From assembly GCF_024700885.2 (NCBI RefSeq), contig NZ_CP117016.1: a stretch of DNA of 64,000 nt; one strand, written 5' to 3'. Within the stretch, counting starts at the first letter, position 1. Every line of letters starts with the position of its first letter. The position numbers were made by a program. Shown one piece after another: positions 14,601 to 20,600 of this stretch. This DNA comes from Escherichia coli. GTDB taxonomy: Bacteria > Pseudomonadota > Gammaproteobacteria > Enterobacterales > Enterobacteriaceae.

Positions 14601-17600
14601 CGGGATATTTTTATACGCCTGTTCAGTACTTGTGCCGCCGTCCCGGTTCCAGGTCTCTACCGTCTGGCCATTGCGCACCAGGGCAGTAAAGCGCTCTCCC
14701 AGACCGTAAACTGTTTCGCCAACGCCAAGATCCAGCCGCTCAAACATATAATTTCGCTGATTATTCGTGTCCTGCACGTAGCCATTATTTTTCACCTGAC
14801 TACCGGTAATACGTTCGCCGTTACGCAGAAAATCCAGTGACCAGAACTCACCTTTGCTGACTCGCGCACTTAAGTTGCCACTTTTAAACTCAGCGTAACG
14901 TTCTGTGTTTTCGATTGTGACCTTCACGTCCTGCAAAATATTGAGCGGGTAATGAGGACCGTTATTCAGCGCCCCCTGAAAATGCTCAATCCGTACACCG
15001 ACAATACCTTCCTGTGGGGAGAAAAAGCGCAGCGTAAATAAAGGCGTATCAAGCTGCCAGGTACGTTCACGCACATCACGGGGGGCAGCATAGACCACCA
15101 TTTCATTACCCTGCTGTTCAACCTCGAACACCTGAAGCGGGTGAATCAAATTGAGGCCAGGTTGAATCAACCAGTTTCCGTCGCTAATTTTCATTGCCTT
15201 TCCTTAATTCTGCACTTCTTGAGAGGCGAATTGTTGCTGGCAACGGCGTTTGCCCTGGGCCAGCTGTTCCATAACGGTTTTCAGATTGTGCGTCGTGAGT
15301 GAGTAGTAGCGTTTAGCGATAATCGCGCTCAGCAAATAACAGATCGCTGGAACAATCGTGAATAGCGCAATAATGATGCTAATCGTGGCGCTGTTCTGCG
15401 CTTTTTCTGCCGCATCATATCCGCCATAAGCCAGCATCCAGCCGATAAGAGCGCCGCCGAAGGCCAACCCCAGTTTGAGCACAAACAGCGTGCCAGCAAA
15501 ACTGATCCCGGTCAGGCGTTTACCATTGCACCACTCGCCGTAGTCGACGGTATCGGACATCATTACCCACTGGATAGGTGTCACCAGTTGATGCAACACA
15601 CCAATCACGAAGATGAAGACAAACATGGTGATGCTGGCCTGCATAGGAACAAAGAACATCGCGAGGCTAATCACTGCCAGCAGGGCGTTCGTCCACCAGA
15701 AGATAGTGACTTTACATTTCCAGTCGGTCAGCGGTTTTGCCAGAGCGGAACCAATCAGGTTACCCACGCAATAAGTGGTGAGAAAAGCGACAAACACTTC
15801 CGGCGTACCCAAAATCCATGTGACGTAATACATCATCGCTCCACCGCGTACGCACACCGCCAGGATATTGAAAATGGTTAGTAAACCGACAATCCGCCAC
15901 TGGTCGTTTTGCCAGATATCACGTAAATCTTCCCGCATAGACGTCGTTGTAGGTGGTGCTTCAACGCGTTCTTTAGTGGTGAAGAAACAAAATGCCAGCA
16001 TCATAAATGCCACCACAGAAAGGACCGCGATACCGCCCTGGAAACCGAGTGGTTTATTATCACCACCAATTAAATTAACCAGCGGCATCATCAGCACAGT
16101 AGAGAGCATGCCTCCCGCGGTCGCCAGCACAAAACGCCAGGATTGCAGCGAGATACGCTGAGTCGGGTCATTGGTGATTACACCACCCAATGCGCAGTAA
16201 GGGATATTAACGATGGTATAAAGTAAGGTAAGTAGGGTGTAAGTAATTGCTGCATAAATCATTTTTCCGTTCATACTGAGATCTGGCGTGCTATAGGCCA
16301 GTACACAGACGATCCCAAATGGCAGTGCGCCAAACAGTACCCACGGACGAAATTTACCCCAGCGAGAGCGCGTTCGATCGGCCAACAACCCCATGCAAGG
16401 ATCGGAAATCGCATCCAGTGCACGAGCGACCAAAAACATGGTTCCGACAAATCCGGCAGGAATGCCAAAAATATCGGTATAAAAGAACATCATATATAAC
16501 ATTACGTTATCGAAAATAATGTGGCTGGCGGCGTCTCCCATGCCATAACCAATTTTCTCTTTAACGGACAACACTTCACTCTTCATCTGCTTTTCCTTGA
16601 TGCTATAGGGGTGCTGAGACCGATAACGCATTTTGTAAACCATCCCTGTGAGAGCGAATATTCCGATATCTGGTTATTAATTTATGATTCTTGTTTTATG
16701 TGATCGTGGTAGCGTTAATTCCGCTCATATATCATTGTAAAATATGGATTTTATATGAATTATAATGCTTTCGTGATAATACGCTGCGTGTATTAGGCGG
16801 AAAAAACTGATCTGGGGGATGTAGAAACTCAAGGAAGTAGCTATAATGCGCCCCGCCTCCATGTAGCAATCGAGGCGCGGAAGATCGTCGTCTCCGGTGA
16901 GGCGGCTGGACTTCAAATCCAGTTGGGGCCGCCAGCGGTCCCGGGCAGGTTCGACTCCTGTGATCTTCCGCCAAAATGCCTCTTCATACGTTCTCCAACC
17001 CCTTGTAATACTGTCAATCCAGAGATTTTCTATCTGCTCAATATTCAATCGGCTTCAGGAATACCTGATCAAAGGATTTGTGATGGACGATGAGCGACAG
17101 AAGAATCCGCCTGTCGGTTCTTCTGTCCTCGAACGCATCCGCGATATTCGCGCCAGCATGCGCCGTGTTTATTTGCAGGTGATTTGCCCCCTGCTGACTC
17201 TCAGCCAACTGTATCGCCATTAAGGTGAAGATGTTGTTTTACACGCCCCAGAACACCCTTTTTTTATACGATGATTCTATTCCTTTAACCGCTGGCGAAA
17301 AAAACTGACCTATAAACTTCACCAATAATCAGACTGCCATCAAGATTAATTTGTTCATTTAATATATCAAATAAACTTGTTTTATTTTTACTATCAAAAA
17401 TAGCTCATTGCCTTACTATAATTAATATATAAATTCGGTAATTAATTCTTAACATGCTTTTGCTAATAATCTCAATTGCTGGCCCTATAATATTGCGCTA
17501 GCATTGCTTTCTGGTTGTATCAGCGATACTCAAAAATTCTTAATATAATACTCATTCGACTGGTACTTATTTGTAACTCAGTTATATTTTGTCGCCCGGT

Positions 17601-20600
17601 GATTCAGAAGAATGCAAAAAACGGCTACCACTCCATCAAAAATACTTGATCTCACTGCCGCGGCATTTTTACTTGTCGCCTTTCTGACTGGTATTGCGGG
17701 CGCTCTCCAGACTCCCACCCTAAGTATATTCCTCGCAGATGAACTGAAAGCCCGTCCTATAATGGTAGGTTTTTTCTTCACCGGTAGCGCTATTATGGGA
17801 ATTCTGGTCAGTCAATTTCTGGCAAGGCACTCCGATAAACAAGGCGACCGTAAATTACTGATCCTGCTATGTTGCTTATTTGGAGTGCTGGCCTGCACGC
17901 TTTTTGCGTGGAATCGCAACTACTTCATTCTCCTCTCTACGGGCGTACTTCTGAGTAGTTTTGCTTCCACTGCAAACCCGCAAATGTTCGCCCTCGCCCG
18001 TGAACACGCCGACAGAACAGGTCGTGAGACGGTCATGTTCAGTACATTTTTACGTGCTCAGATCTCGCTTGCCTGGGTTATCGGGCCACCGCTCGCTTAT
18101 GAGCTGGCAATGGGATTTAGTTTTAAAGTGATGTATCTCACCGCTGCCATCGCATTTGTTATTTGCGGGCTGATAGTCTGGTTGTTTTTGCCATCAATAC
18201 AAAGAAATATTCCTGTCGTTACCCAACCCGTAGAAATTTTACCCTCCATCCATAGAAAGCGGGATACACGGCTACTTTTTGTGGTCTGTTCAATGATGTG
18301 GGCGGCGAATAATCTCTACATGATAAATATGCCGCTATTTATTATTGATGAACTGCATCTAACCGATAAACTGGCTGGAGAAATGATTGGTATCGCTGCC
18401 GGTCTGGAAATTCCGATGATGTTAATCGCAGGCTATTACATGAAACGTATTGGCAAGCGACTATTAATGCTCATTGCTATCGTGAGTGGTATGTGTTTTT
18501 ACGCCAGCGTACTCATGGCGACGACTCCGGCAGTAGAGCTGGAATTGCAAATTCTAAATGCCATCTTCCTTGGTATTCTCTGTGGTATCGGCATGCTTTA
18601 TTTTCAGGACCTGATGCCTGAAAAAATAGGTTCTGCGACAACATTATATGCAAATACCTCACGCGTCGGCTGGATTATCGCCGGCTCTGTTGACGGAATT
18701 ATGGTTGAAATCTGGAGCTACCACGCGTTGTTCTGGCTGGCGATAGGTATGTTGGGTATTGCGATGATTTGCCTGCTGTTTATTAAAGATATTTAGCTCA
18801 CCTGTCTGGGCTAAGAAAAATCGGCGTGGCGCAAACAGAGCCATCCTCGCCATTTTTGCTATCATGCCTGCATACATAAACGACAAAACAGTATGCAGAG
18901 GGAAAAATGGGTTCCACCAGAAAGGGGATGCTGAACGTTCTGATTGCCGCCGTGTTGTGGGGAAGTTCAGGGGTCTGCGCGCAATACATCATGGAGCAAA
19001 GCCAGATGTCGTCGCAGTTTTTGACTATGACGCGTTTGATATTCGCCGGTTTGATTCTGCTGACGCTGTCATTTGTTCATGGCGATAAAATCTTTTCTAT
19101 TATTAACAATCACAAAGATGCCATTAGTCTGCTGATTTTTTCCGTGGTTGGCGCGCTAACCGTACAGCTCACTTTTTTGCTAACCATTGAAAAATCGAAT
19201 GCTGCCACGGCAACGGTGCTGCAATTCCTCTCACCGACGATTATCGTCGCCTGGTTCTCACTGGTGCGTAAATCTCGCCCGGGCATTCTGGTTTTCTGCG
19301 CTATTTTGACATCGCTGATCGGGACTTTTTTATTGGTGACACACGGTAATCCGACGTCATTATCGATCTCTCCTGCCGCGTTATTCTGGGGCATTGCCTC
19401 GGCATTTGCTGCTGCATTCTATACCACCTATCCCTCAACGCTGATTGCCCGCTATGGCACGTTACCGGTCGTCGGCTGGAGTATGCTGATCGGTGGTCTG
19501 ATCCTGCTGCCCTTCTATGCCGGGCAAGGAACAAACTTCGTGGTTAATGGCAGCCTGATTCTGGCGTTTTTCTATCTGGTGGTAATCGGAACTTCGCTAA
19601 CCTTTAGTCTATATCTGAAAGGCGCACAGCTCATTGGCGGTCCAAAAGCCAGCATTCTGAGCTGTGCAGAACCATTAAGTAGCGCGCTGCTCTCTTTGCT
19701 GTTGCTGGGGATCACGTTCACATTGCCGGACTGGCTGGGAACGCTGCTGATTCTGTCATCGGTGATTTTGATTTCAATGGATTCTCGTCGCCGCGCCAGA
19801 AAAATAAATCGTCCGGCGCGGCATGAGTGAGAATTACCAGCCAGGCACCGCGCCACCGTTAAAGATGGTTTCTGCCGCTTTAGCGACTTCGGGCGATTGA
19901 TAAGATTGCAGAAATTCCTTCACGTTTTCTGCATTCTTATTATCTTCCCGTGCCACCAAAATATTCACATACGGCGAATTTTTATCTTCAATAAATACGC
20001 TGTCGTGCACTGGAGAAAGCCCGGTCTGCTGAATGTAAGTGGTGCTGATAATTGCCACATCAACTTTGGGATCATCCAGTACGCGCGGGAGCTGCGCCCC
20101 CTCGAGTTCCATAATCTGCAAATGACGAGGATTATCGGTTATATCCAGCGCGGTAGGTAATAACCCTTTTCCCTCTTTCAGAGTAATTAGCTTCTCTTTT
20201 TGCAACAGTAAAAGCGCGCGACCAAGGTTGGTTGGGTCGTTGGGGATCGCCACTGTCGCGCCTTCTTTTATTTGCGCCACAGTTTTGATTTTTTTGGAAT
20301 AACCCGCCATGGGGAAGACAAACGTATTTCCCACCGCTACCAGTTTATAACCATGCGCCTGATTATCTTGTTCAAGAAAGGGGCGATGCTGGAAGACGTT
20401 CGCATCAAGCTCGCCATGATTTGTCGCATCGTTCGGTAACAACGAACCGCTAAATCCTACCAATTCAACATCGAGGCCATATTTCTCTTTTGCCACCTTT
20501 TTAGCGACTTCCGCGACATCTTGTTCTGCGCCATTAATAACGCCCACTTTAATGTGCTTTTCATCGCTGCTGCTCTGGTCGCAACCTGCCAGCAGAATTC

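Follow-up and report, generated by a model that had tools for sequence, protein, structure and literature searches.

The selC locus and its 3' flank

The selenocysteine tRNA gene selC is a classic integration hotspot of pathogenicity islands, and the island types that integrate there include the locus of enterocyte effacement (LEE), PAI-I 536, SHI-2 and selC-A. The state of this site, and of the DNA between selC and the sugar efflux transporter gene setC, was analysed in a stretch of 64,000 nucleotides from Escherichia coli (contig NZ_CP117016.1, assembly GCF_024700885.2), hereafter the window. The features of the locus, among them a fragment of the gene rhuM in the selC-setC spacer, are collected in Table 1.

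ARAGORN returned a single tRNA in the whole of the window, tRNA-SeC (TCA), and Rfam RF01852 matched this gene over the full model (1-91) at 83.8 bits, the gathering score being 47. It is identical to K-12 selC at 95 of 95 bases, and the 79 bases on its 5' side are also without any difference from K-12. An earlier reading of the window, made from sequence only, had described selC as complete and intact, and these three lines of evidence confirmed it. At permissive Rfam thresholds no RNA gene other than tRNA-Sec was detected in the region 16600-17700.

The spacer between selC and setC measures 638 bp as compared with 636 bp in MG1655 (selC at 3836222-3836316, setC from 3836953), in good agreement with the spacing of about 640 bp, similar to K-12, that had been claimed for it. 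Pairwise alignment of window positions 16800-17650 with K-12, a check proposed along with the sequence-only reading, was colinear from end to end, the spacer differing by 19 substitutions and four one-base insertions or deletions. On a larger scale, blastn showed the window to be colinear with K-12 over positions 13657-21153, from yicI to the end of yicS. The longest stop-free stretch of the spacer in any frame is 82 codons, and none of its open reading frames (ORFs) could encode an integrase. When the spacer was scanned for promoter and terminator consensus sequences, nothing exceeded shuffled expectation, and no Rfam match was found in the AT-rich stretch that precedes setC.

Table 1. Features of the selC region and of the downstream island (positions refer to the window; GC, G+C fraction; PGAP, Prokaryotic Genome Annotation Pipeline)
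Feature	Position	Strand	Basis
selC, tRNA-Sec, anticodon UCA, encoded CCA end, complete	16879-16973	+	ARAGORN, Rfam RF01852, K-12 identity
Attachment core of selC-targeting integrases: 3' terminal 21-24 nt of selC with about 10-13 nt of flanking DNA	16950-16986	+	Single copy
selC-setC spacer, 638 bp, GC 0.38, colinear with K-12	16974-17611		Alignment
RhuM-family pseudogene fragment (K-12 yicT), 130 bp, both termini lost	17052-17181	+	PF13310, tblastn, PGAP, K-12
AT-rich stretch 5' of setC, GC 0.315, presumed setC promoter/regulatory region	17241-17611		Composition
setC, sugar efflux transporter, 394 aa	17612-18796	+	ORF; K-12 and identical-strain annotation
yicL, backbone gene	18907-19830	+	ORF, annotation
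nlpA, backbone gene	19834-20652	-	ORF, annotation
yicS, backbone gene	20862-21155	+	ORF, annotation
eip/"selC-B" island, 20.4 kb, between yicS and nepI	21154-41554		blastn breakpoints versus K-12
eicA, SycD/LcrH chaperone	21457-21954		ORF; PGAP product in 100%-identical strain
eipB, YopB/SseC translocon subunit	22202-23983		ORF; PGAP in identical strain
eipC, hypothetical protein	23996-25147		ORF; PGAP in identical strain
eipD, IpaD/SipD tip protein	25191-26540		ORF; PGAP in identical strain
eilA, HilA-family regulator EilA	26743-28440		ORF; PGAP in identical strain
iatC/eaeX/air, inverse autotransporter IatC, 4,287 aa	28490-41353	-	ORF; PGAP in identical strain

The selC attachment site is empty in the K-12 sense

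A P4-family tyrosine integrase inserting its element at selC leaves the 3' terminal 21-24 nt of the tRNA gene duplicated at the far end of that element. A search for such a duplicated selC 3' end had been suggested earlier, and it was carried out over all 64 kb with a 26-mer and a 17-mer on both strands, allowing up to three mismatches, where the only hit was the tRNA itself. Smith-Waterman alignment with a 36-nt query of selC core and flank was equally empty, with a best score in the spacer of 16 against a shuffle mean of 15.5, and both upstream and as far as 22 kb its scores did not rise above those of shuffles. The 393-aa selC integrase of enteroaggregative E. coli (EAEC) 042 was then used as a tblastn query, which at E<=0.01 had no match anywhere in the window and at E<=100 gave nothing but noise in the spacer, and the claim that no integrase lies beside selC was thereby upheld. 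Because neither a second selC 3' end nor any integrase-like sequence was present, the selC locus is very probably in the empty (attB) state on a standard K-12-type E. coli backbone, and nothing was found that contradicts this reading. The core sequence is identical to the one bordering selC-A in EAEC 042. The site is presumably still open to integration. An empty selC is an already known and ordinary state, and in this respect the locus holds nothing new; "unoccupied" is used here to mean as empty as in K-12, and not never used.

Three substitutions relative to K-12 are clustered at 16984-16987, that is, +11 to +14 past selC and at the edge of the attachment core, and the allele formed by the first 60 bases of the flank is rare, being present in about 50 of 3,159 genomes. 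Both observations would suit a recent excision, in which an island such as selC-A of EAEC 042 had occupied selC until shortly ago, and it may be added that selC-A is carried by EAEC 042, whose selC-B island is similar. We nevertheless regard a recent excision as unlikely. The rare allele occurs in dozens of genomes from varied hosts and so looks like a lineage polymorphism, while EAEC 042 has yet another, third allele at the positions equivalent to 16984-16987; moreover, precise excision leaves no diagnostic mark and cannot be shown by a single sequence. The cluster itself may be the footprint of past cycles of integration and excision, or plain lineage polymorphism.

The spacer carries a dead fragment of rhuM

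The spacer of this empty site contains, starting 78 bp past selC, a fragment of a RhuM-family gene. Its translated frame matched the Pfam profile PF13310 (Virulence_RhuM) with E=7.6e-12 and 45.5 bits (cut-off 33.7), the match being limited to profile positions 50-99 of 252. When compared by tblastn with the intact 345-aa RhuM of the B2-type E. coli strain 1449, the fragment aligned with aa 121-171 at 40 of 51 identities, or 78% counting an 8-residue gap which reflects an 8-codon (24-bp) internal deletion. If this deletion is disregarded, the fragment shares 90% of its nucleotides with the intact strain 1449 gene and 86% with rhuM (STM3755) of Salmonella pathogenicity island 3 (SPI-3). No further remnant of rhuM was found outside 17052-17181, either in the spacer or in the whole window.

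The fragment has already been annotated, both in K-12 and by PGAP, and it constitutes the sole refinement to the reading of an empty site. In strain 1190, which is 100% identical, PGAP lists a "RhuM family protein, incomplete" that corresponds to window positions 17053-17181, and it annotates a partial RhuM pseudogene at the selC flank in every K-12-type genome. The MG1655 counterpart is the pseudogene yicT (b4653), on which the literature collection searched contained no paper. Since the match is confined to the stated portions of the profile and of the 345-aa protein, and is interrupted by the 8-codon deletion, the fragment is a dead pseudogene and not a functional member of the RhuM family.

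A functional small gene at yicT might be argued for from the window frame, which is open for 82 codons and has an ATG at 17083, and from the retention of the fragment in 3,628 genomes. Such a gene is, however, extremely improbable, as only 50 of the 252 profile positions of PF13310 are covered and other copies are visibly damaged: relative to the window fragment, K-12 yicT has an in-frame TAA just upstream and a C-run frameshift that alters the C-terminus, and an internal stop is noted for the fragment in BL21. In addition, the fragment is more diverged from K-12 than the other spacer DNA, its 130 bp containing seven substitutions and the remaining 508 bp 12. The pseudogene is an old, species-wide relic, and gives no sign of recent occupancy of selC.

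States of the selC flank across E. coli

The frequency of this arrangement was counted in 5,426 complete E. coli genomes, with selC and flank called contiguous when a 100-nt probe centred on the junction of tRNA and flank was covered to at least 80% in one piece. Contiguous selC and K-12-type flank were found in 2,562 genomes (47%), and a K-12-type flank was present anywhere in the genome in 3,628, which by difference leaves about 1,066 genomes with an insert between selC and the flank. Only a diverged full-length rhuM was found in 843 genomes, and in 895 nothing matched the initial 267 bp of flank. The empty selC is the commonest single state among complete E. coli genomes.

Origin of the rhuM fragment

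A plausible history of the relic is that an ancestor of the K-12-type lineages once had a rhuM gene beside selC, and that this gene would have been eroded by deletions before the lineages with this flank diverged. The association of rhuM with selC would then predate the divergence of the K-12-type lineages. Two observations weigh against this history. The portions of rhuM lying 5' or 3' of aa 121-171 are undetectable in the window, and the relic is not bordered by any decayed copy of the selC end, such that integration of the parent gene cannot be shown directly; because of this missing repeat, we infer rather than demonstrate an origin in an ancestral island.

The opposite proposal would be that the flank is pristine chromosomal DNA which has never held foreign genes, and the organisation identical to that of K-12, with no integrase and no repeat, speaks for it. 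Yet the RhuM-family fragment exceeds the Pfam gathering score and is 86-90% identical to the rhuM genes that islands carry at selC, both in SPI-3 and in B2 E. coli, and the slot between selC and yicL varies in content, with the relic and setC here as against rhuM and a hypothetical gene in strain 1449. A pristine flank is thus very improbable, and erosion of an ancestral rhuM is the history that we prefer.

The full-length RhuM of strain 1449 matched PDC-S05, a phage-defence candidate of PADLOC, with E=2.8e-173, and had no match in PHROGs. Wolbachia WO, Gordonia and gut phages have RhuM homologues with identities of 43-51%. The PDC-S05 match and the phage homologues fit with RhuM being mobile cargo. 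Taken further, rhuM-bearing elements may have arrived repeatedly at the E. coli selC flank, with rhuM as a recurrent and turnover-prone selC-linked cargo across genera. This suggestion, which is offered tentatively and may well not hold, is based on the K-12-type relic of aa 121-171, on the intact rhuM accompanied by an older relic in B2, and on the rhuM of SPI-3.

The selC hotspot is free in the strain from which the window derives, as it is in K-12 and, among the complete genomes of E. coli, in about 47%. Reference sites that are called "empty" may themselves be scars of earlier insertions, and the rhuM scar matters where K-12 is taken as the baseline for island boundaries; beyond such bookkeeping, its significance is slight.

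The eip island is not integrated at selC

The eip island, or selC-B, is type III secretion-related and is associated with ETT2 (type III secretion system 2 of E. coli). It starts 4.18 kb past selC, stands in place of 48 bp of K-12 DNA and is followed by nepI, and its GC fraction is 0.496. The sequence-only reading had placed a pathogenicity-type island about 4 kb further on, past setC, yicL, nlpA and yicS, which is where it was found. The gene set eicA-eipB-eipC-eipD-eilA-eaeX is present after setC-yicL-nlpA, at the published location. The eip locus, designated "selC-B", was first described in EAEC 042, where it follows setC, yicL and nlpA and is regulated by EilA (PMC7058095, PMC2808357), and the number of Ig-like repeats in IatC differs among strains according to the literature. 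It has been reported that selC-A is largely absent from sequence type 69 (ST69) isolates with selC-B (PMC7058095), and the window has exactly this ST69-type configuration, with selC-B present and selC-A absent. Although the literature speaks of the "selC locus", selC is not the integration site of the eip island seen here.

Neither an integrase nor direct repeats flanking 21154-41554 were found, the only similarity of its ends being an 8-bp chance inverted match.

Beyond the island, the nepI-yicN interval has an insertion of 840 bp relative to K-12 (42834-43673), and this insertion contains a RelE/ParE-family toxin (42973-43326, 117 aa) together with a helix-turn-helix (HTH) antitoxin (43310-43633, 107 aa). 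The same toxin and antitoxin pair is found at the same position in the B2 strain 1449.

Comparison with known selC regions

In K-12 MG1655, the order selC-yicT-setC (b3658, b4653, b3659) agrees with the window in gene order, orientation, tRNA and the presence of the yicT fragment. The two differ in that K-12 has no eip island of 20.4 kb in its yicS-nepI interval, and in that the relic of the window is without the in-frame TAA of K-12.

An occupied version of the same site is found in EAEC 042. Here selC adjoins the integrase gene of an 11-kb P4-like satellite prophage (psu, ogr/delta, Icd-like, primase-helicase), all of which is absent from the window. The satellite ends in a perfect 21-bp repeat of the selC 3' end, GACTCCTGTGATCTTCCGCCA, and this repeat is followed by the spacer of the window, including the rhuM relic, and by setC, at 97.9% identity. 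EAEC 042 further shares with the window the setC, yicL and nlpA backbone and then the eip/eilA/eaeX island (selC-B). The satellite at selC in strain 042 is the published "selC-A", the selC-A/selC-B naming being that of Sheikh et al. 2006 as given in PMC7058095. In BL21, a CP4-type element is found at selC, and it ends in a partial selC repeat set against a flank of the type seen in the window.

In Salmonella, SPI-3 carries a full-length rhuM (STM3755) 3' of selC, in the same orientation as the fragment of the window. The context of this gene was taken from AFYI01000003.1, a 515-kb chromosomal contig of Salmonella Infantis that was filed in a phage collection. In this strain, S. Infantis SARB27, rhuM lies 2.9 kb from selC within a 17-kb island that ends in mgtCB, the gene order being sugR-rhuM-rmbA-misL-fidL-marT-slsA-cigR-mgtB; besides aa 121-171 of rhuM, the window keeps no other SPI-3 gene.

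The B2-type strain 1449 has an intact rhuM encoding 345 aa (8642-9679 of its retrieved sequence), which starts 52 bp past selC and has the same orientation as the fragment of the window; rhuM is found beside selC in this way in about 843 E. coli genomes. Past this gene come an imperfect and partial copy of the selC 3' end without TTCC (9791-9821 of the retrieved sequence), then a second, frameshifted rhuM relic covering aa ~166-237 (~9905-10070), and after it a gene for a 165-aa hypothetical protein and yicL, setC being absent (region 8495-10923). The selC-end repeats of BL21 (~3001-3030 of its retrieved sequence) and of strain 1449 are without 3-4 nt of the tRNA (TCC/TTCC). The 21-mer repeat of EAEC 042, by contrast, is perfect, and the selC core in use apparently varies slightly from element to element. 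Comparison of the spacer and setC of the window with the rhuM-to-yicL segment of strain 1449 revealed no homology except for the relic and the attachment core, and the two share the first ~10-15 bases past selC. The region of strain 1449 looks like an integrase-less rhuM islet of 1.2 kb, bounded by selC and the partial repeat of its 3' end and inserted beside an older rhuM remnant.

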